64,000 bases of DNA from Escherichia coli (GCA_009729775.1 GCA_009729775.1_4081.1), one strand, 5' to 3'; positions 2,927-50,610 are shown, numbered from the stretch's first letter. The notes: generated by a model not told the origin, from the letters alone. A program made the numbers and translations.

Positions 2927-3191
2927 ATTTCTCTTTATTAGCTTGTTTGGTTTTATAGTGAATTAAATCTATTAATGTAATCAAGTACAACTTCAAAAAG
3001 TACTCTTGATGGTTCGTACCTAATGATACAAAGAATTTATGCTCATAAATTAAAACCTGTTTCACTTCAAAAGGACACTTAATCCTCTGTATAGGTTTAA
3101 GTAAATGGTAGTACTTGTATAATCTATTATGCATTTCTAATTCAGATAGTACTTTCATATTAAACACATACTCCATTAGCTGTAGCATCAC
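2916..3191 (-). CDS. family-A small paralog (91 aa)
   Basis: SLGTNHQEYF motif. Confidence 0.55.
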   Translation of the reverse strand: MMLQLMEYVFNMKVLSELEMHNRLYKYYHLLKPIQRIKCPFEVKQVLIYEHKFFVSLGTNHQEYFLKLYLITLIDLIHYKTKQANKEKYEN

Positions 3192-3381
3192 GTAAAGCTG
3201 TCAAATACTTCTGTACTGCTTGCTCTTGCTTATTTGTACCTAAAAGTATATACATCCATAATTCACTGTAATGTACATCTTGTGTATAAGGGTTGTTGTA
3301 ACTTTTTGATAATATAGCATCAAATTCAGATGCATGAACCCTTGTGAACTTAAGCATATCTTGTTGTGTTATGATTCTCAT
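3160..3381 (-). CDS. family-A small paralog (73 aa)
   Basis: LLGTNKQEQAV motif. Confidence 0.6.
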   Translation of the reverse strand: MRIITQQDMLKFTRVHASEFDAILSKSYNNPYTQDVHYSELWMYILLGTNKQEQAVQKYLTALRDATANGVCV

Positions 3382-3593
3382 ATCTTTTCCTGTATAAGCT
3401 TCTTAAGAATCTCAATATATGAATTAACAGTTCTCTCTTGATGCTGTGTTCCTAAGAGTGTCAGTACTATCATATCTGAACGCAAAAGATTTTTTTCAAG
3501 TTCACTTATATCAGTTCTTGAATCAAGTGCCATATATTTGTGATTATTCTTCCTGAATAGTGCCAAGTACTCTTGATTTGATATTTCCTTCAT
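3378..3593 (-). CDS. family-A small paralog (71 aa)
   Basis: LLGTQHQERTV motif; ATGA-type overlap with neighbour. Confidence 0.6.
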   Translation of the reverse strand: MKEISNQEYLALFRKNNHKYMALDSRTDISELEKNLLRSDMIVLTLLGTQHQERTVNSYIEILKKLIQEKI

Positions 3594-3817
3594 AGTCTAT
3601 CCTTGATGCCATTTAAAAGTGCTCTAATATGCTCATTGACAAAACGCTCTTGGGAATCTGTGTTTAGAGTGAGAAGCATTCTTAAATCTGAACTTTTTAT
3701 ATGATATTCTAAATCATTCTTTGATTCTCGCATAAGTTTCTGAAAGGATGAGAAGTGTAATCCCATGAGTTCAATGTATTCTGCTGTTCCTAGGGGTTTG
3801 TGTATATGTTTGTGCAT
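3590..3817 (-). CDS. family-A small paralog (75 aa)
   Basis: LNTDSQERFV motif. Confidence 0.6.
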   Translation of the reverse strand: MHKHIHKPLGTAEYIELMGLHFSSFQKLMRESKNDLEYHIKSSDLRMLLTLNTDSQERFVNEHIRALLNGIKDRL

Positions 3818-4029
3818 TTTAATTGTATTACCCTTTTGAGTGTATTAATGTAATTATACACATTGGCTTCTTGATAGTTAGTTCCTAGAGTAGCTTGAAC
3901 GTAGATTTCATTTAACTTAATGATTTTATCAGTATCTGGTAGTTTTGATGTGTTAATGGCAAATAACTTCAAAAACAGTCCATTTATGATTGTTAGGTAT
4001 TCTTCTTCTGTAATGATTTTCATTTGCAT
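3790..4029 (-). CDS. family-A small paralog (79 aa)
   Basis: LGTNYQEANV motif. Confidence 0.6.
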   Translation of the reverse strand: MQMKIITEEEYLTIINGLFLKLFAINTSKLPDTDKIIKLNEIYVQATLGTNYQEANVYNYINTLKRVIQLKCTNIYTNP

Positions 4030-4235
4030 TTTCTCAGTACTGATTCTTTAAGTTCATTGATGTAGTCCTCAATGTATTGCTCTTGTAAGTTAGTTCCAAC
4101 ATATAAAAGAACTCTTAAATCGGCTCTAAGTACTTCTTTGTCATCATCATCTATATCAGACAGTGTTATGTTTAAGAATTTACTTGCATTCTCTATAAGT
4201 AATATTACTGAATCACCTTCGCTTAAAATTTTCAT
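4020..4235 (-). CDS. family-A small paralog (71 aa)
   Basis: VGTNLQEQYI motif. Confidence 0.6.
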   Translation of the reverse strand: MKILSEGDSVILLIENASKFLNITLSDIDDDDKEVLRADLRVLLYVGTNLQEQYIEDYINELKESVLRKCK

Positions 4236-4443
4236 AATCTCTTTTTGCTTTCCTCGCCAAAAGGTACATATACGATTCTTCGTATTGTGCTTGATAGTTT
4301 GTGTTTAAGAGTCGAAACAACTTCTGTTCTGCTAGAACGAGTTGCTTATCTTCATAACAACGATAGCGTATCAACTTTTTGTATTCGATGTTGATTACAT
4401 CCATTACTATAAGCCCATGTTCATCATCTGTCAAGTGTTTCAT
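4213..4443 (-). CDS. family-A small paralog (76 aa)
   Basis: LNTNYQAQYE motif. Confidence 0.6.
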   Translation of the reverse strand: MKHLTDDEHGLIVMDVINIEYKKLIRYRCYEDKQLVLAEQKLFRLLNTNYQAQYEESYMYLLARKAKRDYENFKRR

Positions 4444-4669
4444 GTATCTTTTCCTTAATAGTGATTTTAAGAGATTTAATTATACGTTCAACGTGATACT
4501 CCTGTCTATCAGTTCCAAGAAGGTATGGTAGTGCTTGGAATAGAGCTTCCGCATTCTTTTCCTCTGGGGTTTGGTTTGGATCATTAGGAAGTTGATTGGC
4601 ATATCTCTTGGCACTAACTAATCTCTCGACGTATTCATTATATGTTAAGTATATCATTTCATTTTGCAT
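4424..4669 (-). CDS. family-A small paralog (81 aa), near-duplicate of 4659-4895
   Basis: LLGTDRQEYHVERIIKSLKITIKEK; close protein and DNA identity to the next gene. Confidence 0.6.
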   Translation of the reverse strand: MQNEMIYLTYNEYVERLVSAKRYANQLPNDPNQTPEEKNAEALFQALPYLLGTDRQEYHVERIIKSLKITIKEKIHETLDR

Positions 4670-4895
4670 TTACTTTTTCCTTAATAGTAATTTTAAGATA
4701 TTTAATTATACGTTCAATGTGATACTCTTGCCTATCAGTTCCAAGAAGGTATGGTAATCTTTGGAATAAAACTTCTGCACTCCTTTCTGCTGGGGTTTGG
4801 TTTGTGTTGTGAGGAAGTTTATTTGTAAGTCTTTTGGATTTATCTAGTCTTTCTGTTAACTCATCATGTGTTAAGTATATCATTTCCTTTTGCAT
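4659..4895 (-). CDS. family-A small paralog (78 aa), near-duplicate of 4424-4669
   Basis: LLGTDRQEYHIERIIKYLKITIKEK. Confidence 0.6.
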   Translation of the reverse strand: MQKEMIYLTHDELTERLDKSKRLTNKLPHNTNQTPAERSAEVLFQRLPYLLGTDRQEYHIERIIKYLKITIKEKVNAK

Positions 4896-5122
4896 TTAAT
4901 GTTCCTTACGTAAATTGTCTGGATTAAACAATCAATCCACGTTTGAATATATTGGTTTTGATACTGTGTGCCTAAAAGACTCTGCATTTTAAACTCTGCT
5001 TCAAGTTCATATCTCTTTTCTATAGAAAAGCTTAAATGACCATATTCCCTATCGTATCTTCTATGAGCTTCGCCAAGTCTATCAAATCTTTCTGATAATC
5101 TGATGTTATTAATTTTATTCAT
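4880..5122 (-). CDS. family-A small paralog (80 aa)
   Basis: LLGTQYQNQYI motif. Confidence 0.6.
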   Translation of the reverse strand: MNKINNIRLSERFDRLGEAHRRYDREYGHLSFSIEKRYELEAEFKMQSLLGTQYQNQYIQTWIDCLIQTIYVRNIKCKRK

Positions 5123-5409
5123 CGCTCAGTACACCTTAGTGGACGGGTCATTTGATAAAAGTACAGCTTACCTCTGATTTCCATTAGTAATTCATTTAAT
5201 ACGCGTTCTACCTCTTGTTCTTGATAGTTCGTGCCTAACAATGCACCCATCTTTAACTCACGCATCATAATCATCTTCTTACTGTGTTGAATTTCTGGGT
5301 TGTGATAGATTGTATTACGTTTAAGAGTAATTTTTGCCATACGCTCGGTATATTCATCTTTACTTAAATTAATCATTTTCATGTTAATTACCCTTACATT
5401 TATTTTCAA
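5119..5409 (-). CDS. family-A small paralog (ORF 96 aa; likely start at internal Met near 5382)
   Basis: LLGTNYQEQEV motif; internal MKMINLSKDEY matches the family N-terminus. Confidence 0.6.
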   Translation of the reverse strand: MKINVRVINMKMINLSKDEYTERMAKITLKRNTIYHNPEIQHSKKMIMMRELKMGALLGTNYQEQEVERVLNELLMEIRGKLYFYQMTRPLRCTER

Positions 5410-5614
5410 TACTATTCATGAGTTCTATAAGATAGTTTTCTACCTTACCTTCCTGATAGTTAGTCCCTAGGAAGTTGCACAACACGGCTTCTATAATTTT
5501 GATTTTCCTGATATCCGACTTCAATCTTTTGTTATTGAATATTTGAATCCTTATATCTCTGGATGCATTTAAACGTTTTTGATAGTCATGGTAAGTTAAA
5601 TGAATCATTTTCAT
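5384..5614 (-). CDS. family-A small paralog (76 aa)
   Basis: FLGTNYQEGKV motif. Confidence 0.6.
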   Translation of the reverse strand: MKMIHLTYHDYQKRLNASRDIRIQIFNNKRLKSDIRKIKIIEAVLCNFLGTNYQEGKVENYLIELMNSIENKCKGN

Positions 5615-5829
5615 TTACGTTTAACCTCTCGCTGGAGGGCATCAATTAACATTAGTACAGCATTCTCTTGATAGTTTGTTCCTAAGACTGAAAGCATCTT
5701 TATCTCATTTACTAAAATCAACTTCTTTGAGGGTTCAATAATGTGACTATCATAAACGGCCTTACGTGCTGGATAAGTTTTCGCCAGTATAACATAAAAT
5801 TCGTCTTTACTTAAATTAATCATTTGCAT
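5611..5829 (-). CDS. family-A small paralog (72 aa)
   Basis: VLGTNYQENAV motif. Confidence 0.6.
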   Translation of the reverse strand: MQMINLSKDEFYVILAKTYPARKAVYDSHIIEPSKKLILVNEIKMLSVLGTNYQENAVLMLIDALQREVKRK

Positions 5830-6038
5830 TTACTTTTAACCTCTTTCTGTAGAGCGTCAATCCATAGATCTACATACATTTGTTGATAGTTTGTGTCTAT
5901 TAGTGCACCTACATAGAGTTCAGCTACCATTGCGTGCTTTATGTCAATAGGGATGCTCTTATCAGATTGAATCTTTCTCCTTCTGCTTCCACATGTTTTC
6001 AGGAGCCTGATGTATTCAAAACCTTGTAAATTTCTCAT
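5820..6038 (-). CDS. family-A small paralog (72 aa)
   Basis: LIDTNYQQMYV motif. Confidence 0.6.
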   Translation of the reverse strand: MRNLQGFEYIRLLKTCGSRRRKIQSDKSIPIDIKHAMVAELYVGALIDTNYQQMYVDLWIDALQKEVKSKCK

Positions 6039-6250
6039 ATTTTGGATACCACCTTGTTACGTAAGGAACTTAATAATACGTCAGTGTAGATGTTTTGATA
6101 GTTTGTTCCTACGAATGCACCCAACTTCATTTCAGCTATTATAACACATTTGTCCTCTTGTGCAATAGACTTGTCTAAAGAAATACTAACAACTTTCCCT
6201 CTTATAGTTTGTAACCTCCAATGATACTGATACTCATTAAGGATTATCAT
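6035..6250 (-). CDS. family-A small paralog (71 aa)
   Basis: FVGTNYQNIYT motif. Confidence 0.6.
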   Translation of the reverse strand: MIILNEYQYHWRLQTIRGKVVSISLDKSIAQEDKCVIIAEMKLGAFVGTNYQNIYTDVLLSSLRNKVVSKI

Positions 6251-6497
6251 TCTCTCGTCTCCAGATTTCGGTTCTCATGTGTTGGCAGTGTGCATCAATA
6301 TATTGCTCTATCGATCTGGCGATTGCTGTTTTATCAGTGCCTGTCATCAGTACAAGCATCTCTGCCTCACTATGAATTAAACGCATGATATCATAGGGTA
6401 ATATTTCAGATACTGTATCATAGTGTTTGTGTGTCAGTGTCTGCAATAGTTTACAATACATTTTGTGATTTAGTCTTTGTCGCATTGTTTCTTCCAT
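6237..6497 (-). CDS. divergent family-A-like small protein (86 aa)
   Basis: LMTGTDKTAIARSIEQYI in the family motif position. Confidence 0.5.
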   Translation of the reverse strand: MEETMRQRLNHKMYCKLLQTLTHKHYDTVSEILPYDIMRLIHSEAEMLVLMTGTDKTAIARSIEQYIDAHCQHMRTEIWRRENDNP

Positions 6498-6742
6498 TCT
6501 CTTCTGGCTTGACGGGTTTTTTCTGATATTTCGTTTCTCAATGCAGAGATATATCGTAGAGTGAACAGTTCTTGATAGTTAGTCCCTATGAATTTATTAA
6601 GATATACATCAGCGTTGACGATATCAGCTTCACGGGAATTATAAAGTTTATTGTTCGTGCGAAGGGTGTTTAGAAGAGAGAAGAGGGCAGTCTGATACTC
6701 AGTGCTTGATAAAGTTTTCATATTTTTCCACAATTCGTTCAT
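6470..6742 (-). CDS. family-A small paralog (90 aa; start may be internal)
   Basis: FIGTNYQELFT motif. Confidence 0.55.
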   Translation of the reverse strand: MNELWKNMKTLSSTEYQTALFSLLNTLRTNNKLYNSREADIVNADVYLNKFIGTNYQELFTLRYISALRNEISEKTRQARREWKKQCDKD

Positions 6743-6956
6743 TTAGTTTTATCTGTATAAGATCCATTAGTTGTTCAAGATAATCGGTACAATATTTCTC
6801 TTGATATTGGGTTCCCACAAAGTACAGCAACCATAGCTCATGAACTTTAACTTTCATCTCGTTCCATGAAAGTGCATCGTCATCGTAGATTACTCTTGCT
6901 TCTGGGGTGAGCTTTCTAACTCTAATTGAATATTCATCGTCAGTTAAGTGTTTCAT
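6699..6956 (-). CDS. family-A small paralog (85 aa)
   Basis: FVGTQYQEKYC motif. Confidence 0.6.
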   Translation of the reverse strand: MKHLTDDEYSIRVRKLTPEARVIYDDDALSWNEMKVKVHELWLLYFVGTQYQEKYCTDYLEQLMDLIQIKLNERIVEKYENFIKH

Positions 6957-7171
6957 TTACATTTATCCCTTATTAGATTTGTGAGGGCAACTATGTGTGC
7001 AACAACATACTCTTCCTGAAAGTTCGTCCCCAGTACAGCCATCATGCGTATATCGGTGGTGTTTATCCTGTGTTCCCTTACACATAAACCTTCTTTGTGA
7101 GGAAGTGTAAAATATTTGTTTATTGCAGCAATGACAATTTTATTCTTCTCGGTGATACTTAAATGTTTCAT
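6953..7171 (-). CDS. family-A small paralog (72 aa)
   Basis: VLGTNFQEEYV motif. Confidence 0.6.
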   Translation of the reverse strand: MKHLSITEKNKIVIAAINKYFTLPHKEGLCVREHRINTTDIRMMAVLGTNFQEEYVVAHIVALTNLIRDKCK

Positions 7172-7380
7172 AGTTTACTCCTGATATAATTCTGAAGTGC
7201 AATTAAGTATTCCCCTACATAATACACCTGAAAGTCTGTATCAAGGAATGCACCCATAAGTAAATCTTTTTCTAATACCCTTGATAAGTTAAGGTCTGCA
7301 TTTGAAAGGTATATAAGTAAGATTTCACCCTGTGCGGAATTGAAACGTTTCTTATATTCTTCTGGTGTTAAAAAAATCAT
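7168..7380 (-). CDS. family-A small paralog (70 aa)
   Basis: FLDTDFQVYYV motif; close paralog of 7377-7592. Confidence 0.6.
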   Translation of the reverse strand: MIFLTPEEYKKRFNSAQGEILLIYLSNADLNLSRVLEKDLLMGAFLDTDFQVYYVGEYLIALQNYIRSKL

Positions 7381-7592
7381 AATTTGCTCCTGATATATTT
7401 CTCAAGAGATGACAAATACTTTTCCTCATAATACTTCTGATAGTCTGTTCCTAAGAATGCACCCAATAGTATATCATTTTCCAATACCTCGGCTAAGTTT
7501 AAATCAGAAGTCTCTTCGTATATTATGAGGATTTCAAGTTGTCTGGCAGCGATGCGTTCAGTATATTGATATGAGTTTTCTATAATAATCAT
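7377..7592 (-). CDS. family-A small paralog (71 aa)
   Basis: FLGTDYQKYYE motif. Confidence 0.6.
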   Translation of the reverse strand: MIIIENSYQYTERIAARQLEILIIYEETSDLNLAEVLENDILLGAFLGTDYQKYYEEKYLSSLEKYIRSKL

Positions 7593-9739: not shown

Positions 9740-9779
9740 ATAATAGCAAAGGGACTGACCGGAGTCAATCCCTTTTTTT
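9740..9779. terminator. stem-loop cassette GGGACTGACCGGAGTCAATCCC with flanking T-run; TTGACT box inside the stem
   Basis: Hairpin 9751-9772, T7 run on plus side; on minus strand TTGACT-N17-TATTAT promoter geometry. Confidence 0.55.
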
Positions 9780-10337: not shown

Positions 10338-10411
10338 GATGTTTCCCCTTTAGTTAGTAAAGTTAATACAACAGTACTATCACGCATTGTCAATAGTACT
10401 GAAATAAAACT

Positions 10412-11640: not shown

Positions 11641-11673
11641 TGAGTTATCTCTCAATGAATATATAATAGCAAA

Positions 11674-11701
11674 GGGACTGACTGGAGTCAATCCCTTTTT
11701 T
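11674..11701. terminator. stem-loop cassette GGGACTGACTGGAGTCAATCCC plus T-run
   Basis: Same cassette as 9740-9779. Confidence 0.55.
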
Positions 11702-14126: not shown

Positions 14127-14261
14127 TTATTTGTTTTCTTTTCGTAATTTCTTTTCAGCTTCAACTACATTCTTATTTGTGCAAACTACTTCATCGGATA
14201 AATCTAACTTCCATCCAGACAGGGGTTTGGTTTGTTTCTTTGCTGCTTTGTTCGCTTTCAT
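14127..14261 (-). CDS. small Lys-rich protein (44 aa), not in ORF track
   Basis: Hand translation MKANKAAKKQTKPLSGWKLDLSDEVVCTNKNVVEAEKKLRKENK; AAAGGA RBS; own promoter at 14292-14319. Confidence 0.5.
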   Translation of the reverse strand: MKANKAAKKQTKPLSGWKLDLSDEVVCTNKNVVEAEKKLRKENK

Positions 14262-14291
14262 GATGTTTCCTTTTTAATTAAGATGTAAACT

Positions 14292-14319
14292 ATTATACAG
14301 TACTAAGATACTTTGTCAA
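14292..14319 (-). promoter_or_regulatory. sigma70-type early promoter (minus strand)
   Basis: TTGACA-N16-TATAAT, identical cassette to 14096-14123. Confidence 0.6.
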
Positions 14320-14328
14320 TCTATTTTA

Positions 14329-14529
14329 TTAGATAGTTTCCCATTTCATGTTACCCGCTTTACGCTGTGAAACAGGAATAAACATGTTATTAATGTTACT
14401 AATATAACCGACCTGTAAGTCACGCTGTGAACCATATGCCCGACTTGCTGCATTTTTAGCACCGCGTTCTGATTTATAAACGCCGCTGGATACTGTAAAG
14501 CCTACTACACCGAAAGTAAAATGTTTCAT
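14329..14529 (-). CDS. hypothetical early protein (66 aa)
   Basis: AGAGGA RBS; ORF track. Confidence 0.6.
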   Translation of the reverse strand: MKHFTFGVVGFTVSSGVYKSERGAKNAASRAYGSQRDLQVGYISNINNMFIPVSQRKAGNMKWETI

Positions 14530-14595
14530 TTTGTATTCCTCTTTGTGGTTGATGTAAGTATTATACTCGTTTACTTTCTATTGTCAATCTTTTTT

Positions 14596-14668
14596 ATCAG
14601 GGGAGTTTTTCGTATGTCTTACTCCTGGACTACTTAACGGGGTTACTTGTTTCGTTCCCCGTCCTGAT
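14596..14668 (-). promoter_or_regulatory. two-hairpin leader element between tandem promoters (copy 1)
   Basis: CAGGGGAG...CTCCTGG and AACGGGG...CCCCGTC stems; near-identical copy at 25181-25256. Confidence 0.5.
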
Positions 14669-14723
14669 GTAAAACATTATACTTGATTCTAAGTACAATG
14701 CAAGTACTTTTTAAAAATAGTTT

Positions 14724-15004: not shown

Positions 15005-15032
15005 TTTGTTTCTATGCGTATATAATAGCAAA

Positions 15033-15061
15033 GGGACTGACCGGAGTCAATCCCTTTTTTA
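15033..15061. terminator. stem-loop cassette GGGACTGACCGGAGTCAATCCC plus T-run
   Basis: Same cassette as 9740-9779. Confidence 0.55.
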
Positions 15062-18146: not shown

Positions 18147-18237
18147 TTTAGTATTCCTTAAATTAATATGCGTTGTCTTGATAAAAGTTATTATGCCAGT
18201 ACTATCAAACGTTGTCAATAGTACTGTGATAATATTT

Positions 18238-19053: not shown

Positions 19054-19087
19054 TGAGCTATCTCTCAATGAATACATAATAGCAAAA

Positions 19088-19115
19088 TGGCTGACCGAAG
19101 TCAACCACTTTTTTT
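19088..19115. terminator. stem-loop cassette GGCTGACCGAAGTCAACC plus T-run
   Basis: Variant of the cassette that recurs at 45-60 kb. Confidence 0.55.
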
Positions 19116-20684: not shown

Positions 20685-20770
20685 TTTAATTTCCTCTTAG
20701 TTGTCTTGATAAAATCTATTATGCCAGTACTATCAAACTATGTCAATAGTACTGTGATAATAATTTTACT
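20685..20770 (-). promoter_or_regulatory. 85-bp promoter/RBS cassette, duplicated at 20980-21065
   Basis: Near-identical sequence including TTGACA-type promoter, RBS AGAGGAAA and ATG. Confidence 0.6.
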
Positions 20771-20979: not shown

Positions 20980-21065
20980 TTTGTTTCCTCTTAGTTGTCT
21001 TGATAAAATCTATTATGCCAGTACTATCAATCTATGTCAATAGTACTGTGATAATAATTTTACTT
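20980..21065 (-). promoter_or_regulatory. 85-bp promoter/RBS cassette, second copy
   Basis: Direct repeat of 20685-20770. Confidence 0.6.
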
Positions 21066-22014: not shown

Positions 22015-22497
22015 TTATGCTTCAATTTTGCGGTGAGATTCGATCCATTCCTCGCGAGTCATACCGCTTTCTTTGATAGCATCCAGTACTACCGCAATGC
22101 AGTTACCGCGTACAGGAATCAAATGTTCTTCCCCGTTATCAAGGACAACCGTAACACGTTCTTGAATCCATTTTTTAGGCTTAGATTCCGGCTTATCTTC
22201 ACCGTACTTAACCGCCAGGGCTTTATGTGCCATTTCAATAACCACTTCCAGATCTAAACCAGACACCGCCGCCTGAATACTTTCTATTGTTGCTTGCAGT
22301 TCTGCTTCACGGGCTTTTTTCTGTTCTTCCAGTTCTGCTACCTTTTTGGCTTGTAGTTCTTTCGCTTCACTGTAAGCAATGTTAAAATTGTTGCGTACTG
22401 CTTTCATGGTATCATTATCCAGGTCAGCCAGCAATTCAGCAGCAATCACAGTATCGTTAGAAATCAGTGCTTTCAGAAATGATTTTACATTAGCCAT
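22015..22497 (-). CDS. putative H-NS-like nucleoid-associated protein (160 aa)
   Basis: Start adjusted to MANVKSF... (GAGGA RBS); N-terminal coiled-coil-like region, C-terminus LDNGEEHLIPVRGNCIAVVLDAIKESGMTREEW parallels the H-NS DNA-binding core [34 protein letters not shown]. Confidence 0.4.
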   Translation of the reverse strand: MANVKSFLKALISNDTVIAAELLADLDNDTMKAVRNNFNIAYSEAKELQAKKVAELEEQKKAREAELQATIESIQAAVSGLDLEVVIEMAHKALAVKYGEDKPESKPKKWIQERVTVVLDNGEEHLIPVRGNCIAVVLDAIKESGMTREEWIESHRKIEA

Positions 22498-22684
22498 TTT
22501 ATAAATCCTCAATTAAAGTTTAAGTTAGTTTATCAAAGTTTGTTTGACGTGTCCAGTTTTTCATTCGACTTACTGGCGGTCTACTTAATGTTCCCCGTCT
22601 TGATGTAATACATTCTACGCTTTTCCCTGGTAATGTCAACTACTTTTTTAAAACTATTTTCAAAGTATACCAGTACTACGATAA

Positions 22685-24500: not shown

Positions 24501-25112
24501 TTAATATGCGATAGATTCTACTACATCGTCGATAACGTTAAATTGATATTCGTTACCCTCAATCAGTCCTACAATGTTTTCAGTAGTAAACTGGTCTTCA
24601 TAAGCATTTTCTAAATCACGGTACAGCTTACAAGATAATTCTCGGATAGTATCAGTCAGTAAGTTTTCCAGATCCTCAGCTAATGCAGCCTGTTTTACAG
24701 TTAAATCAGTGTAGCGAGTATCAACGCAACCGCCTACCGTGTTTTCGTGAGCGTAGCGTGATTGGGAACGTTCTACACTCATTTCCAAATCATCTTCGTT
24801 CAACAGGTGACGGATGGAACGATATTTCGTTAACGCCTTAACCTTGCGTAAAAACTTCTCAGCGTCAACGTGGTCAGTACTGATTGATGCACCGTCACCT
24901 TGCGACCAAAAACCACTGTATTGCAATTCAGCTTCATCTATGCCGTATTCTGGCAGTACTGTTTCTTTATAGTATTCCAGTACTGATTCAGCAAAGAAAT
25001 TATCCTCACTTGCACGTTCCCGATCCCGAACCAGTTCGATAGCCGCCGCTTGTTGTTCTGCGTTCAGTTCAGAAAAATCCATAACGAAAGTAGTAGTAGT
25101 GATAGTTTTCAT
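24501..25112 (-). CDS. hypothetical acidic protein (203 aa)
   Basis: GAGGG RBS; ORF track. Confidence 0.65.
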   Translation of the reverse strand: MKTITTTTFVMDFSELNAEQQAAAIELVRDRERASEDNFFAESVLEYYKETVLPEYGIDEAELQYSGFWSQGDGASISTDHVDAEKFLRKVKALTKYRSIRHLLNEDDLEMSVERSQSRYAHENTVGGCVDTRYTDLTVKQAALAEDLENLLTDTIRELSCKLYRDLENAYEDQFTTENIVGLIEGNEYQFNVIDDVVESIAY

Positions 25113-25180: not shown

Positions 25181-25256
25181 ATCAGGGGAGTTTTTCGTGT
25201 GCCTTACTCCTGGGCTACTTAACGGGAAGTTACTTATTTCGTTCCCCGTCCTGATG
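25181..25256 (-). promoter_or_regulatory. two-hairpin leader element between tandem promoters (copy 2)
   Basis: Near-identical to 14596-14668. Confidence 0.5.
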
Positions 25257-25325: not shown

Positions 25326-25353
25326 AGATACATTCCCGCACCCTATGGGCTAT
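25326..25353 (+). repeat. conserved 28-bp intergenic motif (copy 7)
   Basis: AGATACATTCCCGCACCCTATGGGCTAT. Confidence 0.65.
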
Positions 25354-25411
25354 CGCCTTGTGTCCGGCTTGTAAGTATTATCTCACTAAGCCGGATAACG
25401 GTCAAGTACTT

Positions 25412-31232: not shown

Positions 31233-31334
31233 GTGTAGTTCTCCTTATATTCCTTCTATAGTACACCAGTACTGAAAGGATGTCAAGGGTTTTCTTTATG
31301 GGGTAAATATGATATAATGAATAAGGAGGGATTT

Positions 31335-32483
31335 ATGTTACCTTTTGCAAGAATGATGAATTACGGGAATATTGCCCCTGGTGATGATGGACGTTTTAAA
31401 ATATATTCCAGTGATTCCATGTATCTTCATGATACTTATACTGATAAGTTGTATGCATCTTCTGCGACGAATTGGGGTACTGGAACAGGTGTAGCATCGA
31501 GTAAATTTATTCTTTGTGCGGAGAATGTTAAACGAGTTCTATTGGAAGATAACAGTAGTGATTGTCAATTGTACGAAGAGAAAGGTACGGGAAAAGTTTT
31601 TATCACTGGCAACACGAAGGCATTCACTGGTGTAACTGATAGAAAAACTTTGTGGACGGAATGTACTACGTGGATAACATCAGGTGGTATTAATGTTTCT
31701 GATATAAAATACATGAGTAGTTTTAATGATATGAAGGTAAATTTGATAACAAACGATGGTACATTGTATTGTTGTGGAGCTAACAATAACTCTAACCTAT
31801 CATCATTTGGTGATGGTACAAACATTAATTCTTTTAACACATTCAAAAGGGTAGATACTATAACTTCGGTTAAAAAGGCAGTTGGTAACATATACCTAAA
31901 AGAAGATAATACTTTATGGGGTTGTGGTTTTAACTATTACTATCAGTTAGGTACAGGCAATCAAACTTCTATTACTGGGGTGACGATGATTGCTTCGGAT
32001 GTTATAGATTTTGATGTAAGTTATCAGAGTACATTTTTTATTAAATCAGATAATAATTTGTACGCATGTGGTAAACAGTTCGGTGCACAATACGGGAACG
32101 AATTTGGCACAGGTGGTACTTCTTCATCTACAGATATACAATACAAAACTCCAACATTATTGAGTTCAGGAGTTTATACTTTATATACTTGTGTTAGTAA
32201 CATGGCATCTCATATTGTCAAAAAAGATGAAGTTATGTATGCATCTGGTTCGAATGGGTTTGGTCAATTAGGTGTTGGTAATAATATTAATCAGTACTCC
32301 TATACTCCTTCGTATACTTCTTTTAATAGTTCGTGTGATTTGGTACGCAGTCCATCTGGATCACTTATACTTACGGATACTGGAAAATTATATTATTGTG
32401 GCCCTGCAATATTAGTAATGGGGGGAATTGCTGGACAAAACATTCTTAGTTATACAGAAGTAGATATGTCATTTATACAATGA
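31335..32483 (+). CDS. RCC1-like beta-propeller repeat protein, paralog 1 (382 aa)
   Basis: Start at MLPFARM with AAGGAGGG RBS; repeated G-x-N-x-x-GQLG-x-G type motifs. Confidence 0.75.
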   Translation: MLPFARMMNYGNIAPGDDGRFKIYSSDSMYLHDTYTDKLYASSATNWGTGTGVASSKFILCAENVKRVLLEDNSSDCQLYEEKGTGKVFITGNTKAFTGVTDRKTLWTECTTWITSGGINVSDIKYMSSFNDMKVNLITNDGTLYCCGANNNSNLSSFGDGTNINSFNTFKRVDTITSVKKAVGNIYLKEDNTLWGCGFNYYYQLGTGNQTSITGVTMIASDVIDFDVSYQSTFFIKSDNNLYACGKQFGAQYGNEFGTGGTSSSTDIQYKTPTLLSSGVYTLYTCVSNMASHIVKKDEVMYASGSNGFGQLGVGNNINQYSYTPSYTSFNSSCDLVRSPSGSLILTDTGKLYYCGPAILVMGGIAGQNILSYTEVDMSFIQ

Positions 32484-32491
32484 ATTAATAT

Positions 32492-32520
32492 GCCAGTACT
32501 TGATACTGGCTTTTCTTATT
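32492..32520 (+). terminator. rho-independent terminator of RCC1 cassette
   Basis: GCCAGTActtgaTACTGGC hairpin followed by T-run; repeated after every paralog. Confidence 0.7.
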
Positions 32521-32533
32521 GTATTAAATATAG

Positions 32534-32556
32534 TATAATGAATAAAGGAGGGAATT
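32534..32556 (+). promoter_or_regulatory. conserved cassette promoter/RBS (TATTAAATATAGTATAATGAATAAAGGAGG)
   Basis: TATAAT box and AAGGAGG RBS conserved upstream of each RCC1-like gene; promoter class not resolved. Confidence 0.5.
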
Positions 32557-33666
32557 ATGTTACCTTTTGCAAGGATGGTTAAGTACGGAAATATTGTACC
32601 TGGTCCTAAAAATATAATTAAAGTTGGTGCTTCTACACAAGGACAATTCTTATTGACTGATTCACATGATTTATATTACATAGGTAGAAATCAAGGTGGT
32701 GAATCTGGAAATGGTAATACCAACACGGTATCTTCATGGATATTAGTAAGTGCAGATGTTTCTAATTTTTTCGTGGGTGATCGTACACTTGTTATTATTA
32801 AAAATGATAATACGATATGGACATCAGGTCAAACGTACTGGTTCTCATCTTCTACAACTACTTCTTACAGTACTGTATTAGTTGAAAGAACTAATTGGTT
32901 TACCAATGCTATACCAGTAAGTGAAATTGCTAATATTGTATGTACAAATGGTTTAATATTTGTACTTAGCACTAATTCAGTACTCTATGGTGCAGGAGAT
33001 AATGGATATCGTGGTTCTTTGGGTATTGGTTCCTCATCAATTTACACATTAACTCAATGTGCTACGAACGTTCGTAAAGTAATGACCAATGCGAATGATA
33101 GTATGTATCTTACATTAGATAATAAGCTATATAGTTCTGGATGGAATAGTAGTGGGCAGCATGGTACGGGGAACCAAACACAAATTAACACTTGGGGATT
33201 GCGTAGTTCTGGTGTAATCGATGCAGCCATTGGTGGTAATGCATTAAATTACTATAATGGTACATCATATTTCGTATGTGGTCAAACTCCAAACTTTCTT
33301 AGTTCAGGTACGACTACATTCCGTGCAGTTCCTGTAAGTACCTTGCCTAATAGTTCTCCATTGTTTATGACGAATTCACCTGCCTTAAATACTGCTACAC
33401 AAATGGTAATTACTAGTACATATCAGAAGGGTGTTGGGGCGAACCGTGGTTTGGGATTAAACAATTCCCAAACTGGTGCTATATATAGTGCTACCAATTT
33501 ACAATTACCCGTTGAAGTTAGTGAGATTAGGGATGTTCTTTTTAGTGATGGTTTGACATCGTTATTAACCAAAAATGGAGATGTGTATAGTACTGGATCG
33601 TATTACGCCATTCCAGGTGCAATCGAGGATGTTGCAGTCTTTACTAAAATTGATTTACCAAAATAA
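32557..33666 (+). CDS. RCC1-like beta-propeller repeat protein, paralog 2 (369 aa)
   Basis: MLPFARMVKYGNIVP start; SGWNSSGQHGTGN and similar repeats. Confidence 0.75.
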   Translation: MLPFARMVKYGNIVPGPKNIIKVGASTQGQFLLTDSHDLYYIGRNQGGESGNGNTNTVSSWILVSADVSNFFVGDRTLVIIKNDNTIWTSGQTYWFSSSTTTSYSTVLVERTNWFTNAIPVSEIANIVCTNGLIFVLSTNSVLYGAGDNGYRGSLGIGSSSIYTLTQCATNVRKVMTNANDSMYLTLDNKLYSSGWNSSGQHGTGNQTQINTWGLRSSGVIDAAIGGNALNYYNGTSYFVCGQTPNFLSSGTTTFRAVPVSTLPNSSPLFMTNSPALNTATQMVITSTYQKGVGANRGLGLNNSQTGAIYSATNLQLPVEVSEIRDVLFSDGLTSLLTKNGDVYSTGSYYAIPGAIEDVAVFTKIDLPK

Positions 33667-33673
33667 CATAATG

Positions 33674-33704
33674 CCAGTACTTGATACTGGCTTTTATTTT
33701 TTGA
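33674..33704 (+). terminator. rho-independent terminator of RCC1 cassette
   Basis: GCCAGTACTTGATACTGGC plus T-run. Confidence 0.7.
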
Positions 33705-33736
33705 TTAAATATAGTATAATGAATAAAGGAGGAATT

Positions 33737-45925: not shown

Positions 45926-45953
45926 GTCTTTATCCTCTTGAGTTGATGAAATG

Positions 45954-45990
45954 ATTATAGCAAAAAAGGCCGACTAGTGTCAACCCTTTT
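45954..45990 (-). terminator. dual terminator/promoter stem-loop cassette
   Basis: On minus strand: hairpin GGGTTGACactaGTCGGCC plus U-run; TTGACA inside the stem and TATAAT 18 nt downstream. Confidence 0.6.
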
Positions 45991-46131
45991 GTTTAGCTAT
46001 TTGGTCACCAACTCACCAGTACATTGATACTCATATGTGACTTGTGTTTGTACACATCCTAATGGTCGTTGATCTGAACACGTAGTCGTTGAGCCGCCGA
46101 AAATCTCGGCTCCTTCATATCCCCATTTCTG

Positions 46132-46326
46132 TCAACGTTTAACTGCACTATTCAATCCTTGATTTAAATCAATTACTGGAATTTCGGAACGTTGGTCAAA
46201 TGCGTATCCTAATCTGATTACACCATCAGCTTTACTCCCACCAACTGGATATAAATCTTTTTTTACTGTACATCCAGACATAATTGTCACACCTACTAAT
46301 ACTAAAATGGATAACATCTTTTTCAT
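46132..46326 (-). CDS. small lipoprotein (64 aa)
   Basis: Signal peptide with lipobox-like VTIMSGC. Confidence 0.55.
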   Translation of the reverse strand: MKKMLSILVLVGVTIMSGCTVKKDLYPVGGSKADGVIRLGYAFDQRSEIPVIDLNQGLNSAVKR

Positions 46327-46341
46327 TATGATTCCTCATTT

Positions 46342-47481
46342 TTATAAAATGACTTCACCAAAAATACCATTGATATCACGTTCAATGATGTATTCACCTT
46401 CATGTTCAGCTAAGAACTTTTTAATGGCTTCGTTAACTTTAGGACGATGAATGTTGTTGAATGTTTCAGTGCAACCATCTCCCTTTTCATAATAACCTTT
46501 ATTATATAGTTTACCACATAACGCAATTGTATGTATTATTATTTCCAATTCTCTAGCAAGTTTCCCACCCACATTCTTATGAAATAAAATGGAAATTTCA
46601 TTACTCCAAAAATTATCTACTTTATATATTTTTTTATAAGATAAGTTTTGTGGACTTAATCTTGCTTTAATAGTTTTGTTTGTAATACCAGCTTTATCCG
46701 AATTTTTTGCATAATCATTGTGAATATAAAATCTTCCAGGCTTGGAAGTTTTAAATCCTTTTACTGCACACGTGGGACAACCAGAACCAGACAGATGTGA
46801 ATTTGGTGTTTGTTGAAATTCACCATGTTCTTTGCATATTATAATAGAGGTTACTTGGTTGTTAATGTAGTCATATAAAGAATAATCATACTTATTTCCG
46901 TGTATAAGATGTGATTTTTTTATAAATTCACCTAAAGTTTGTTTTAAAGTTTGTTTCGTGCATTCTTGACAACCAATTTTACCAGTAGCTAAGTCAGTAA
47001 TTGTGGGTTTTTTTATATCACCACAATCATTACATACTACTTCAATTTTAGTTCTACTAGGAAGTCTAGAGTTAAACGAAGTTATTCCACTATAAGTAAA
47101 TTTATCATAACCATATTTTTTGTTGATGACACTAATATGATTAATGGTGTAATATGGAATATTAATAATATTGTAAAAAATCTTACCATTAAATCCCTGC
47201 CTAATAAAATTCGTGCAGGTGGCTCCAATAACTAACATACCATCGTTATTCACTACAAGTTTGGTTTTTGATTTAGATATATAATCTTGTGATCTATTGA
47301 TATAGAATCCAAGAACTCTTGGATCATTTATTTCACCCATAATACTAATAGGATCTTGAGCAATGTTGGATTTTTTTACAAAATTTATATCTTCGGCTTT
47401 CATCCACTCAAAAAGCATTCCATGCTCTTCATAAAAATAAACTTTTTCACCATCTTCATTAAAATAGTACTGTTCAAACAT
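46342..47481 (-). CDS. Zn-ribbon protein with GIY-YIG-like segment, possible nuclease / homing-endonuclease-like (379 aa)
   Basis: Duplicated KYxYD...C-x2-C / GCPTC cysteine motifs and GRFYI-x10-AGIT-x6-R resembling GIY-YIG; function tentative. Confidence 0.35.
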   Translation of the reverse strand: MFEQYYFNEDGEKVYFYEEHGMLFEWMKAEDINFVKKSNIAQDPISIMGEINDPRVLGFYINRSQDYISKSKTKLVVNNDGMLVIGATCTNFIRQGFNGKIFYNIINIPYYTINHISVINKKYGYDKFTYSGITSFNSRLPSRTKIEVVCNDCGDIKKPTITDLATGKIGCQECTKQTLKQTLGEFIKKSHLIHGNKYDYSLYDYINNQVTSIIICKEHGEFQQTPNSHLSGSGCPTCAVKGFKTSKPGRFYIHNDYAKNSDKAGITNKTIKARLSPQNLSYKKIYKVDNFWSNEISILFHKNVGGKLARELEIIIHTIALCGKLYNKGYYEKGDGCTETFNNIHRPKVNEAIKKFLAEHEGEYIIERDINGIFGEVIL

Positions 47482-47710
47482 TACTTAAAACTCCTTTCCA
47501 GTACTGAACCCGTCCAGCACCATTAATCTTAGCCTGAATCTTATCTTTTTCGACAAGACCTTCTTTGTAATCGATGGAAGTATTATCGCACTTAATTACA
47601 TCCAAGTCAAGTACTTCTTGGGTAGTTAATGATGTATTATCTGCGATTTGTTGTAGAGTAATTACATCAGTACCGAAGTATTCTGCTAAACGTATAAAAG
47701 ATAGTTTCAT
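47474..47710 (-). CDS. small HTH-like protein (78 aa)
   Basis: ITLQQIADNTSLTTQEVLDL resembles a helix-turn-helix; overlaps start of the 379-aa ORF. Confidence 0.4.
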   Translation of the reverse strand: MKLSFIRLAEYFGTDVITLQQIADNTSLTTQEVLDLDVIKCDNTSIDYKEGLVEKDKIQAKINGAGRVQYWKGVLSNV

Positions 47711-47734
47711 GTATTACCTCTCGTTTCGATAAAA

Positions 47735-47767
47735 TAATTATAGCAAAAAGGGCTGACCGAAGTCAAC
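47735..47767 (-). terminator. dual terminator/promoter stem-loop cassette
   Basis: GGGTTGACttcgGTCAGCCC with UUCG loop, U-run, TTGACT in stem and TATAAT 18 nt downstream (minus strand). Confidence 0.6.
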
Positions 47768-47775
47768 CCTTTATG

Positions 47776-48135
47776 TTATTCTAAGTCACTCATAGTACTA
47801 ATAGTTAATCCCATTTCTTCTGCAATGTTGCATAGCAAACCAACAGCATTACGAAGAATATCAGTGTTGTCCACCGAGAATGATGAGTTTTCATTTACAG
47901 TTGAAGACTCAATGTAGTACTCAAAATAACGAGAAGTTGAACGCACAACTTTAACACCTTCATACTTCTGTAGTTCAGAGTTGACACGTTCGATGAGTAA
48001 ATCTTCCAGTGCTCGATAGTCACCATTCATTCCACGTTTCCACCCATCAGCAGGACGGAAATAAAAAGTTTTTGTACGTTGAATTGTTGAGATTGTTAGT
48101 GGGTTGTATTCCGCGATTTCACTTAAAGATGTCAT
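47776..48135 (-). CDS. hypothetical protein (119 aa)
   Basis: ORF track. Confidence 0.6.
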   Translation of the reverse strand: MTSLSEIAEYNPLTISTIQRTKTFYFRPADGWKRGMNGDYRALEDLLIERVNSELQKYEGVKVVRSTSRYFEYYIESSTVNENSSFSVDNTDILRNAVGLLCNIAEEMGLTISTMSDLE

Positions 48136-48241
48136 GTTGTATTCCTCATTTGGTGATGTACATAATACAGAAATATAGAACAGGTGTCAATGTTTATACC
48201 TCAAATATCCAAATACTTTGGTGTAGCACATACTACATCAA

Positions 48242-48436
48242 CTAATCCTCGCTGAAGACAACAATAAGGAATGACACGAACAATGCCGCATAACAAGGAG
48301 CTATCTTCATGTACCACGGGACTTCATAATACCATGTACCCAATTCATCCCACGAAAAGAGTATACTCAAACCGAAGCCGATTAGCGATAGTACAATAAA
48401 AGAAATCCAGAAACGCTTTGAATATACTAATAACAT
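48242..48436 (-). CDS. small membrane protein (64 aa)
   Basis: Two hydrophobic helices. Confidence 0.5.
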   Translation of the reverse strand: MLLVYSKRFWISFIVLSLIGFGLSILFSWDELGTWYYEVPWYMKIAPCYAALFVSFLIVVFSED

Positions 48437-48474
48437 ATTATGTTCCTTTGTGTGACCGAAGTCAATCCTTTCCT

Positions 48475-48990
48475 TTAATAATTATTCATTTCATCTTTGA
48501 TTTGTTCTTCAATTTCGTCAAACATATCAGTACTAGATTCTATATTACTACTTACGTTCTGCATATCTTTAACGTACTGTGGACATTCAACATCAGTAAA
48601 CTTATACCACGTAGGCTTCATCTGGAGCTTCTCAATCAAACGATCACGAGACATTTTAATCTCTGACTCCGTTGGTACGTAGTCATTACAAAACTCAGCA
48701 GGGAAGCCGCTAATGTCGTTTACTTCAGTGTTTTGAATCTTCATACCACGACGCAGACATTCGTTGACAATATCAATATGACGCTTCTGTAAGTACAGTA
48801 ACTTGTCGTAGAAAAATGTTACATGACCTGAACCTAACAGATAAGTACTGTTAATTTTGAAATCACGTACACGCTTACGTGCTTGAACGTGTTTTTGTAC
48901 AGCACCAAATACACGTGGGAGTTCACGATATTCAGCCATCAGATGTTGGTCAGCAAGTTCTTTAACGTGTACTAAGTTAATGCGTGTCAT
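48475..48990 (-). CDS. denV: endonuclease V (pyrimidine-dimer DNA glycosylase/AP lyase), T4 DenV homolog (171 aa)
   Basis: N-terminus [31 protein letters not shown]...KRVRDFKI...[10 protein letters not shown]...PTWYK is near-identical in pattern to T4 endonuclease V. Confidence 0.9.
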
Positions 48991-49018
48991 GTATTCATCC
49001 TCTCGTTTCGATGAAATG

Positions 49019-49051
49019 ATTATAGCAAAAAGGGCCGACTGAAGTCAACCC
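49019..49051 (-). terminator. dual terminator/promoter stem-loop cassette
   Basis: Hairpin GGGTTGACttcaGTCGGCCC, U-run, TTGACT-N18-TATAAT on minus strand, upstream of denV. Confidence 0.6.
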
Positions 49052-49144
49052 TTTTTTTCTTTCAATCAAACATAGTCTACCAGAATGTACCATGCGATGG
49101 TGATTAGAACAAAGAATCATACACTTCTTCATTGTTTAATCCAT

Positions 49145-49414
49145 TTATTCAACAATCCCCAACTTCACAATCTCATACCCGTCCAGATAGCCGTAGGAAC
49201 ACTCAGGTGTTTCATAAGATGAACCATCATGGATGCCTTGGCATTGACTTTTGGAATTCTCAAGCAATCGTTGCAGTACTGATACGTCATCAAGAACGTA
49301 ATACAAGTTAGCATATAGGTCCGTTACAATACAGTACTCCAACATATCAAATGTATCAATCGAAATTTCAACCTTAGCAAATCGTTTCTTTTCTTTATTA
49401 TACAGTGCGTACAT
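49145..49414 (-). CDS. hypothetical protein (about 89 aa)
   Basis: Start adjusted to MYALYNKEKKRF... abutting the stop of the upstream gene. Confidence 0.5.
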   Translation of the reverse strand: MYALYNKEKKRFAKVEISIDTFDMLEYCIVTDLYANLYYVLDDVSVLQRLLENSKSQCQGIHDGSSYETPECSYGYLDGYEIVKLGIVE

Positions 49415-49415
49415 A

Positions 49416-49787
49416 TTAATCTCCATAATCAAGTTTAACTAACTTACCACCCAGATACCCAAAGTTTTCTGGCTTCGCATCTGAATAGAAGAAGTCAGTA
49501 CTTAACTCTGAATTCAATGCTAAAGCACACAACTCCACCCAAAATAAACCCCTATGTTGTACTGGCTTACAACGTTTCTGTACAGTTACTAGTCCAGTAC
49601 ATGATGACCACAACGTAGGGCAGATACTACTATCACTACGATTGGAGTACTGCATCCACGAACGTTCATTGAGGTTAGCTATCATCCCTGTTAAGAATAG
49701 CTTCCAACTTTTAAAGGTTGGAATCTTGATAGCATATTCCCCAATGAGGATAACAGTTCGGGTTGCACCTTTCAAATCTATATTCAT
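49416..49787 (-). CDS. putative kinase-like protein, truncated form (123 aa)
   Basis: EYAIKIP lysine motif, SDAKPEN catalytic-loop-like and KLDYG DFG-like motif at the very C-terminus. Confidence 0.35.
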   Translation of the reverse strand: MNIDLKGATRTVILIGEYAIKIPTFKSWKLFLTGMIANLNERSWMQYSNRSDSSICPTLWSSCTGLVTVQKRCKPVQHRGLFWVELCALALNSELSTDFFYSDAKPENFGYLGGKLVKLDYGD

Positions 49788-49791
49788 AATG

Positions 49792-49968
49792 TTAGTACGA
49801 ATCAGATTCCCAGTACTCGATTGCTTCTTTCAGCAATTCTTTAGCACGTTGTTTTGCAATGCGAGCGGGGAACTGATATGTGTACATTAACTGACGCTTC
49901 ACTTCATTCAGTGAAAGCTGTTCATGGTACAGTGCATCCATCAGTCGATTACGAGTACGTAGTTTCAT
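49792..49968 (-). CDS. small basic protein (58 aa), not in ORF track
   Basis: Hand translation MKLRTRNRLMDALYHEQLSLNEVKRQLMYTYQFPARIAKQRAKELLKEAIEYWESDSY; AAGGATA RBS. Confidence 0.45.
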   Translation of the reverse strand: MKLRTRNRLMDALYHEQLSLNEVKRQLMYTYQFPARIAKQRAKELLKEAIEYWESDSY

Positions 49969-49979
49969 ATAAGTTATCC

Positions 49980-50534
49980 TTATTTCAAAGAATCATAGTA
50001 AGCAGTGTCAAAGATTGGAGTCATAATAACATAGTCAATACGGTCAATGTAAGTTGAACTCCACATTTCTGGTTTGTCATATAACTGACGCTCGCGTTCA
50101 TTCATACGAGTCAGTACTTCTTCCAATTTACTACGTGAATCCATCAATGTATTACTCGAACCATAAGTGAAGTACTCAGTCCAATGATATTCATATTCAG
50201 TACTGATAGATTGAATAGTACCATCTTTGAAATGAGCTAAGGCATAACCTTTCTCTACAAAGTTATCAGGTGGAAGAACACCATCTGGATTAGTTTTCAA
50301 TGCTTGTGCTAACTTTTCTTTAATTTCAGTTAACGTGCATACTGAACGAATGTTCTTCAGGTTTGATACTTGAAAATCACTGTACTTTCCAAAGAAAAAG
50401 ACACGCCAATCTTTAGGTTCATTATCAGATACGTTAGCATCAGGGTGATAGGCGAGTAAACGAAGAAGGCCAGCTTTGTGACCGTTAATGTAGATTTCAT
50501 GGATGTGGTTAGCAGTTTTCTTAAAAGTAATCAT
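49980..50534 (-). CDS. hypothetical protein (184 aa)
   Basis: ORF track. Confidence 0.65.
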   Translation of the reverse strand: MITFKKTANHIHEIYINGHKAGLLRLLAYHPDANVSDNEPKDWRVFFFGKYSDFQVSNLKNIRSVCTLTEIKEKLAQALKTNPDGVLPPDNFVEKGYALAHFKDGTIQSISTEYEYHWTEYFTYGSSNTLMDSRSKLEEVLTRMNERERQLYDKPEMWSSTYIDRIDYVIMTPIFDTAYYDSLK

Positions 50535-50610
50535 GGTAGTTCCTCGATTGTAGGGATGAGAAGTTCATCCCCTTGATAAGCATTATACAGTACTGAATGT
50601 GTTTGTCAAC

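Follow-up and report, generated by a model that had tools for sequence, protein, structure and literature searches.

Promoter-early stem-loops (PeSLs) are mobile regulatory cassettes of T4-type phages (PMC2839356, PMC4122927) and have been described as composite promoter-terminator motifs (PMC4122927). In T7 and the other Studiervirinae, the spacer between the early promoters A1 and A2 is part of a non-coding 'internalisation signal' region (PMC11863960). The sequence of this spacer appears in the open-access literature in construct tables only, and no function is described there for it or for the leader hairpins of Asteriusvirus. Nor did the open-access literature searched, or Rfam, yield a description of the RNA motif of the A1-A2 spacer discussed below. 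Structured RNAs close to early promoters are found in HK022, where putL and putR yield nascent RNAs of ~70 nt with two hairpins, made just after the promoters and present in two copies per genome. In the E. coli rrn operons, hairpins lie between two strong promoters, P1 and P2, placed in tandem ~120 bp apart. Stem-loops at the very 5′ end stabilise E. coli mRNAs, that of the ompA 5′ UTR being an example.

The element considered here lies in the early region of an Asteriusvirus (121Q/PBECO4-like) jumbo coliphage, represented by a window of 64 kb (the whole stretch of DNA that was analysed). It is a promoter-proximal leader structure inside a mobile promoter cassette, an arrangement of a known kind. 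In architecture the locus resembles the PeSLs: repeated units of promoter and hairpin border small early genes in a plastic region and coincide with gene gain, loss and replacement between genomes. It differs from them in that its hairpins lie past the predicted transcription start (+1), have no U-tract and carry sequence-conserved loops, and in the phage families that host it; the two are set side by side by description. The outline of the put RNAs is also shared, whereas a search of the whole HK022 genome with a covariance model of the motif (R1, described below) reaches a best E of 0.35 and indicates no relatedness to putL or putR. The put loops and linker are not known to resemble those of the window element. 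As in the ompA-type stabilisers, the predicted 5′ end of the window RNA is paired from the first nucleotide, but such hairpins need no conserved loop, whereas the window element keeps 7 + 4 + 6 invariant unpaired bases.

Strong tandem promoters at the rrn spacing, with hairpins between them, are likewise present at this locus, and T7-like phages add an rrn-type boxA. In contrast, the model search gives no match in the rrnB leader, 5,426 E. coli genomes searched by BLAST contain no copy of the element, and no rrn-type boxA is found in sense orientation in the 64-kb window. One exact rrn-type boxA, TGCTCTTTAACAA, does occur at 60239-60251 (+), an exact 13-mer being expected ~0.002 times in the window; it lies far from the element, is antisense to the local minus-strand ORF and is therefore probably not a functional antiterminator site. 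Phages of the Kayfunavirus type have an rrn-type boxA before their first gene, and their A1 leader (L034, 63-117; L005 and L068, 445-500) aligns weakly with the first ~50 nt of the E. coli rrnB P1 transcript (L036), scoring 30 against 18.2 ± 2.2 for shuffles. Judged by such sequence likeness, the early control region of T7-like phages may have been modelled on, or captured from, the host rRNA promoter region.

Copies of the element and their promoters

The window is 97-99% identical to Asteriusvirus 121Q, PBECO4, phAPEC6 and ~40 others, and its genes between ~9 and 28 kb lie on the minus strand. Two full copies of the element are found there, copy A at 14596-14668 (-; 73 nt) and copy B at 25181-25255 (-; 75 nt). 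Both had been located by a preliminary description of this DNA, which placed the start of copy B correctly and its end one base too far, at 25256. The copies are 91% identical (69/76), and their differences are confined to the hairpin loops, a variable linker position and a 2-nt insertion in the first hairpin (H1). The duplicated unit is larger than the element alone: it measures ~205-215 bp, is 84-88% identical, and runs from ~40 bp upstream of the P1 promoter, beyond its -35, as far as the start codon, taking in the element and P2. A 20-base core pattern occurs three times in the 64-kb window against 0.01 expected, which excludes chance as the source of the repeat. The pattern match at 22552-22591 (-) exposes a third, degenerate copy (copy C) that the preliminary description had missed.

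Each full copy is organized, along the minus strand, as P1, a 7-nt discriminator, the element, 8 nt, P2, a ribosome-binding site and ATG. The element itself consists of a closing stem that encloses H1, a linker and a second hairpin (H2). In copy A, the 5′ strand of the closing stem occupies 14663-14668, H1 14637-14662, the linker UAAGUAGUCCA 14626-14636, H2 14602-14625 and the 3′ strand of the closing stem 14596-14601 (all -). The corresponding parts of copy B lie at 25250-25255, 25222-25249, 25211-25221, 25187-25210 and 25181-25186 (-).

As the preliminary description held, two minus-strand promoters flank each of these copies. P1 of copy A (14676-14703, -) combines a -35 hexamer TTGCAT (14698-14703) and a -10 hexamer TATAAT (14676-14681) across a 16-nt spacer. 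Its predicted +1 is the A at 14668, after the 7-nt discriminator, set by analogy with T7 A1, A2 and A3, for which the same spacing gives starts at 498, 626 and 750 of the T7 sequence (L035). By this rule the P1 start coincides with the first base of the element. P2 of copy A (14560-14587, -) matches the consensus at 12/12 positions (TTGACA 14582-14587, 16-nt spacer, TATAAT 14560-14565); the spacer sequence, AATAGAAAGTAAAC, is similar to the one in T7 A3, a marginal likeness by local alignment (27 against 19.2 ± 2.5 for shuffles). The gene served encodes 66 aa (14329-14529, -; phrog_7744). Copy B has a comparable P1 (25263-25290, -; TTGCAA-16-TATAAT, predicted +1 at 25255) and P2 (25145-25172, -; TTGACA-16-TATAAT, 12/12 match), and serves a gene of 203 aa (24501-25112, -; phrog_5162), unrelated to that of copy A, again as previously stated.

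An extra promoter, P0 (25377-25405, -; TTGACC-17-GATAAT, 10/12 match, with TG before the -10), lies upstream of copy B, making this a locus of three tandem promoters. The P0 leader (25330-25365, -) has GGACAC..GGCGA(A)TAGCC in common with the 5′ hairpin of the T7 A1 leader, a likeness (20 against 11.7 ± 1.9 for shuffles, z ~4) that is suggestive only. Following this resemblance, P0-P1-P2 may correspond piece by piece to T7 A1-A2-A3.

Copy C (22532-22604, -) has the linker UAAGUAGACCG at 22577-22587 and H2 at 22553-22576, the latter with a CCAG/CUGG stem and the loop UAAGUCGAAUGAAAAA. The 3′ half of its H1 is absent; a closing pairing AUCAAG/UUUGAU is possible, with a local hairpin competing. 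Its sole promoter (22612-22639, -; TTGACA-16-TAGAAT) has a predicted +1 at 22604. There is no P2, and the element continues directly into the 5′ UTR of the next gene (22015-22497, -; 160 aa, phrog_27871). Pfam and PHROG scans of the three downstream genes return only families without assigned function, bar a weak match (E 7e-4) of the copy C gene to head scaffolding. For that lack of assigned function in their families, these genes offer no clue to the element.

The surrounding early region contains many other promoters and repeats. Between 9000 and 28500 (-) there are >25 near-consensus sigma70 promoters, 13 of them perfect TTGACA-N16/17-TATAAT; behind most of the promoters lie a short hairpin of the GGGGAgaaccaTCCCC type, in the leader, and a single small ORF. 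An 8-bp palindrome, CAGTACTG, sits just upstream of the -10 in many early promoters (for example at 10372-10401, 18190-18226, 20718-20754 and 21012-21048, -), and several promoters lie inside a 30-nt inverted repeat, CAGTACTAT-TGACAAT..-ATAGTACTG; to the eye, palindrome and inverted repeat look like the operator of a putative repressor. A 28-nt perfect hairpin, AAAGGGATTGACTCCGGTCAGTCCCTTT followed by GCTATTAT, recurs at 9748-9775, 11671-11698, 15030-15057 and 19084-19111 (-), and its stem holds a -35-like TTGACT. A related repeat, AAAAAGGCTGACCGAAGTCAACCCTTT, recurs at 45943-59878. The 28-nt repeat could serve as terminator and promoter in one, or represent another class of promoter. Two dispersed series of direct repeats occupy 3006-7486 and 31267-40078, one built of ~430-bp units (family D9, 10 copies) and the other of ~1.2-2.5 kb units (families D4 and D6); both series are probably the sign of paralogous gene arrays.

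Fold, covariation and homology with the T7 A1-A2 spacer

The minimum free energy fold of the transcribed strand is a three-way junction in copies A and B. In both, AUCAGG and CCUGAU form the closing stem, on which H1 (ACGGGG/CCCCGU) stacks directly. An 11-nt linker, UAAGUAGNCCA, holds the invariant UAAGUAG and leads to H2 (GGAGU/ACUCC), whose 14-nt loop becomes a 16-nt UAAG-N6-GAAAAA if the last U-A pair is left open. Fold energies are -21 kcal/mol for copy A (z -3.2) and -19.4 kcal/mol for copy B (z -1.6). Linker and H2 loop are unpaired in the ensemble with a probability >0.9, and removal of the closing stem costs 5.4-6.1 kcal/mol. The closing stem is identical wherever it has been compared, so that covariation cannot test it and its support is thermodynamic.

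The two stems proposed in the preliminary description fare differently. That of AACGGGG with CCCCGT is H1 and is backed by compensatory changes across phage lineages. In the other, which ended in CTCCTGG, the GGAG/CUCC core is supported, as H2, and the CAGG/CCUG part is not: in the predicted fold this segment more likely pairs with the far 5′ end as the closing stem.

Several other identities were considered and dropped. An intrinsic terminator is rejected, the terminator scan omitting the element and its 3′ flank (AUAAAAAAG or AUAAAAUAG) being an A-run, not a U-run; a terminator role of PeSL type falls likewise, the hairpins lying after the predicted +1 and being followed by an A-run. Inspection of the sequence disposed of a hammerhead core, a sigma70 pause element and CRISPR-repeat mimicry, for which the order of the GGGG/CCCC stem is reversed. 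Stops in two frames only speak against a three-frame stop barrier, and the lack of an ATG against a leader peptide.

The core of the element, H1-linker-H2, has its match in the A1-A2 spacer of T7. The T7 sequence, identified by its agreement with the A1-A3 fragment in Table 1 of PMC11863960, carries the motif at 533-587 as CCGG-GGUCAA-CCGG A UAAGUAG AC A GCCUG-AUAAGUCGCACGAAAAA-CAGGU, abutting the -35 of A2. Covariance model R1, built from 18 distinct T7-like sequences and no window sequences, detects all three window copies: copy C at 30.2 bits (E 1.6e-5), copy A at 29.6 bits (E 2e-5) and copy B at 25.4 bits (E 2.3e-4), with E-values computed over 103 kb. Beyond these it finds no significant match in the window, the next best having E 0.69. 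A second model, R2, run with filters off, scores copies A, B and C at 55.7, 52.4 and 40 bits and finds nothing else in the window. Detection holds in both directions between the T7-like and window groups. Alignment of the window cassette with T7 A1-A3 by sequence only is marginal (z ~3-4), and the significance of the homology therefore derives from the structure-aware model.

The features that define the motif in T7-like phages recur in the window. Copies A and B have H1 immediately 5′ to the linker, and UAAGUAG is present in all three window copies and in 40/40 aligned matches. H2 is a stem of 4-5 bp with a loop of 14-17 nt that starts with (A)UAAG and ends with GAAAAA; its stem sequence, GGAG/CUCC or CCAG/CUGG, differs from that of the T7-likes yet pairs. 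In T7 as in copies A and B, the motif is on the sense strand with a strong sigma70 promoter before it and another after it, while copy C has the upstream one only. The P2 spacers of the window also resemble those of A2 and A3 (GAAGTAAAC). The window element is, on these grounds, homologous to the T7-type A1-A2 leader motif.

The two settings are distinct in other respects. The motif of the T7-likes, the best-conserved block of their ~200-nt A1-A2 region, begins ~35-40 nt past +1 behind a separate 5′ hairpin, which the window copies lack; these instead add the closing stem from +1 and so form a three-way junction. The boxA and RNase III site found downstream in T7-like phages are also missing from the window copies, and no long duplex of RNase III type lies downstream of copies A and B. 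T7 has the motif once, at the genome end, whereas the window has 2-3 copies before individual small genes.

Base pairing was assessed in a combined alignment of 40 matches (26 distinct). Standard pairs form in 93.9% of cells, against 75% after column shuffles and ≤54% with slid partners, figures biased towards structure by the fitting of the alignment to the model. Changes on both sides occur in five of nine pairs. H1 is found as CCGG/CCGG, CCAG/CUGG, CGGG/CCCG and ACGGGG/CCCCGU, and the H2 stem as CCUG/CAGG, CUUG/CAAG, CCAG/CUGG and GGAG/CUCC. Of the four H2 stem pairs beside the loop, three differ on both sides when the T7-likes are compared with the window, yet linker and loop are kept; the invariant unpaired bases noted above are those shared across phage families. 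The copies of the jumbo phages, Vequintavirinae and Justusliebigvirus are 86-100% identical among themselves and thus represent one lineage, so that independent covariation events are few. G.U pairs also occur in the stems and fit the sense strand only.

Both hairpins show RNA-type covariation, on the sense strand and directly after a sigma70 promoter. Of the two identities offered there, a structured RNA leader is borne out by the transcribed strand, the start at the predicted P1 +1, the covariation of both hairpins and recognition by a T7-like model. A protein-binding site, taken as a DNA site, fits poorly: the stems covary, the gap between H2 and the -35 of P2 ranges from 2 to 35 nt among lineages, and one copy, copy C, has no P2. 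The variable gap and copy C also imply that the element is not simply an upstream element of P2.

Distribution and exchange of the cassette

The conservation in related genomes on which the preliminary description had made its proposal depend is found well beyond Asteriusvirus. BLAST identifies the P1-element-P2 unit in Justusliebigvirus muut, outra and EmilieFrey and in Vequintavirinae A73, W70, A7_1 and A5-4, at 86-94% identity; in each case a consensus promoter has its predicted +1 at the start of the element, and a second promoter follows. A pattern scan of IMG/VR recovers the motif in 32 T7-like contigs of 37-45 kb, always between the first and second promoters for host polymerase. In all, 510 phage records of 36-45 kb carry it, from ~ten genera of Enterobacterales (Escherichia, Klebsiella, Salmonella, Yersinia, Enterobacter, Citrobacter, Serratia and others). 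The P1-element-P2 architecture is conserved in four phage lineages. A metagenome scan adds two contigs only, with an identical element and the downstream gene known from the Asteriusvirus vB_Ec-M-J, and no new variants.

Searches for known RNAs and for bacterial copies were negative. Rfam 15 yields no match at the element in the early region of the window (E up to 10) or at the homologous loci of T7, Peacock, A73, A7_1 and muut, and ARAGORN finds no tRNA or tmRNA genes in the 64-kb window. Among 185,579 bacterial species, each represented by one genome, 28 pattern matches occur and none is a genuine bacterial copy: 27 are chance matches in coding sequence without the stems, and one is a T7-like fragment. 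Accordingly, the element does not belong to the hosts or their prophages.

Phage families exchange the promoter-element-promoter unit as a cassette. Positions 14164-14674 of vB_Ec-M-J (L069) and 1490-2003 of muut (L001) are 95.7% identical over 516 bp, a segment that comprises the element, P2 and a gene of 276 nt and is shared by an Asteriusvirus and a Justusliebigvirus, members of different subfamilies. At copy A, homology between the window and vB_Ec-M-J ends right after P2, and the 276-nt gene is absent from the window. Many Asteriusvirus genomes match the window across a 180-bp cassette only. This gene gain and loss beside the unit and the matches limited to the cassette are the behaviour of PeSL cassettes, and repeat families D1-D16 add a further PeSL-like feature. 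The region of vB_Ec-M-J that corresponds to the early region is a 21.5-kb direct terminal repeat; all three element copies fall inside it, oriented with transcription. Other early genes are 81-84% identical between Vequintavirinae A7_1 and the window. Unrelated virulent coliphages are seen to draw on a common pool of early-gene cassettes.

Function of the element

The reading preferred here is that the element is a cis-acting, promoter-proximal leader RNA of P1 transcripts, to which a probability of about 0.5 is given. P1 transcripts would start at the first base of the closing stem, which would hold the 5′ triphosphate end in a duplex and protect the long mRNA isoform against 5′-end-dependent decay; a paired 5′ end has this effect on E. 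coli mRNA. The invariant single-stranded linker and H2 loop may form a docking site for a factor common to Enterobacterales, candidates being an RNA-binding protein and RNA polymerase together with its elongation factors. The mark would be confined to transcripts from P1 or A1, and P2 would give the same mRNA without it, so that the element would distinguish two transcript classes.

The main rival to the cis-acting leader is unlikely but accounts well for the tandem promoters. P1 would make the folded 75-nt RNA for its own sake, as a trans-acting small RNA or decoy, and P2 would be the real promoter of the gene. Release would be by processing in the AU-rich tract past the closing stem, as by the RNase III cut at R0.3 in T7, and in early infection the free RNA would sequester a host factor or imitate one. 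A second full promoter after the element, and the restriction of the element to some transcripts only, would both follow. The junction is compact and stable with its invariant loops exposed, it is made from very strong early promoters that in a relative lie in a terminal-repeat early region, and the motif is absent from the host genomes searched. Phage RNA mimics of antitoxins are known, pseudo-ToxI providing a precedent, and the separation of the T7 leader from the 0.3 mRNA by RNase III fits the same scheme. However, neither a terminator nor a U-tract follows the element, the processing site is putative, copy C is a plain 5′ UTR without P2, and no complementarity to any target was found. It is improbable that the element is a generic 5′ stabiliser and nothing else, in which case the loops would be conserved through shared ancestry or a DNA-level role. 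Nearly every early promoter at 9-28 kb does have a leader hairpin behind it, the closing stem begins at the predicted +1, and the stabilising effect of 5′-terminal stem-loops is established for ompA. A plain stabiliser, though, would not show three of four H2 pairs replaced on both sides yet linker and loop kept, and the T7-like motif stands some 35-40 nt past +1, behind a hairpin of its own.

The two remaining explanations concern DNA and the elongating polymerase. An element acting in duplex form as part of P2, with the GAAAAAC A-tract and its neighbours serving as a UP-like element, a bend, a spacer or a limiter of interference, is a long shot. T7 has AAAAACAGG at about -46 to -38 of A2, the position of a proximal UP subsite in the UP element consensus, reportedly that of Estrem 1998; nearly all lineages have P2 behind the motif, and related words (TAAG, ATAAGG, GAAACAAAAC) persist in the T7 A2-A3 spacer, where no H2 stem is evident. 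Against it stand the distance from A-tract to -35, which runs from ~7 to ~40 nt, the presence of the motif without P2 in copy C, and the compensatory changes in two stems, which a duplex DNA role leaves unexplained. Very unlikely is an RNA of the put kind, whose nascent hairpins would bind the transcribing polymerase and make pausing or termination ineffective, so that P1 transcripts would extend far downstream and P2 transcripts stop at the first terminator. Its appeal lies in the put-like outline (two hairpins in ~70 nt, placed immediately behind early promoters, in few copies), in terminator-like hairpins among the early genes of the window, and in the rrn-type boxA further downstream in the same leader of T7-likes. 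The model nevertheless finds nothing in HK022, where E is at best 0.35, and the window is without a sense-orientation boxA. T7 A1 transcripts, moreover, stop at the early terminator TE in vitro, in conflict with such a role.

For the cis-acting leader RNA, T7 narrows what a shared function could be. RNase III cuts the leader off the T7 0.3 mRNA, and a purely mRNA-stabilising role therefore cannot be the function in common. The T7 deletion D111, said to remove A2 and A3, is viable, so that the motif may be dispensable in the laboratory. Since P2 makes element-free mRNA, the element cannot be required for expression of the downstream gene.

On a wider and more tentative view, H1-UAAGUAG-H2 would be an unrecognised functional RNA family common to T7-like phages and three other phage groups. 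If so, the motif would be made within the first ~100 nt of T7 A1-type transcripts in >500 Studiervirinae genomes, and its presence in Justusliebigvirus, Vequintavirinae and jumbo Asteriusvirus would be due to cassette exchange. The RNA would bind a host factor through its invariant loops, as a polymerase modifier or an early decoy, and the 'non-coding' promoter spacer of T7 would gain a function of its own. The tandem-promoter cassette, sometimes with a gene, crosses phage families at ~96% nucleotide identity, and its exchange extends the PeSL idea, that regulatory cassettes are recombination handles, beyond T4-type phages. Few pieces of phage DNA are used as widely as T7 A1-A3, which is regarded as promoters plus spacer; synthetic constructs with A1 fragments may unintentionally include part of the motif RNA. 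A covarying motif in T7 A1-A3, common to three unrelated phage groups, would point to an overlooked layer of early-infection control.
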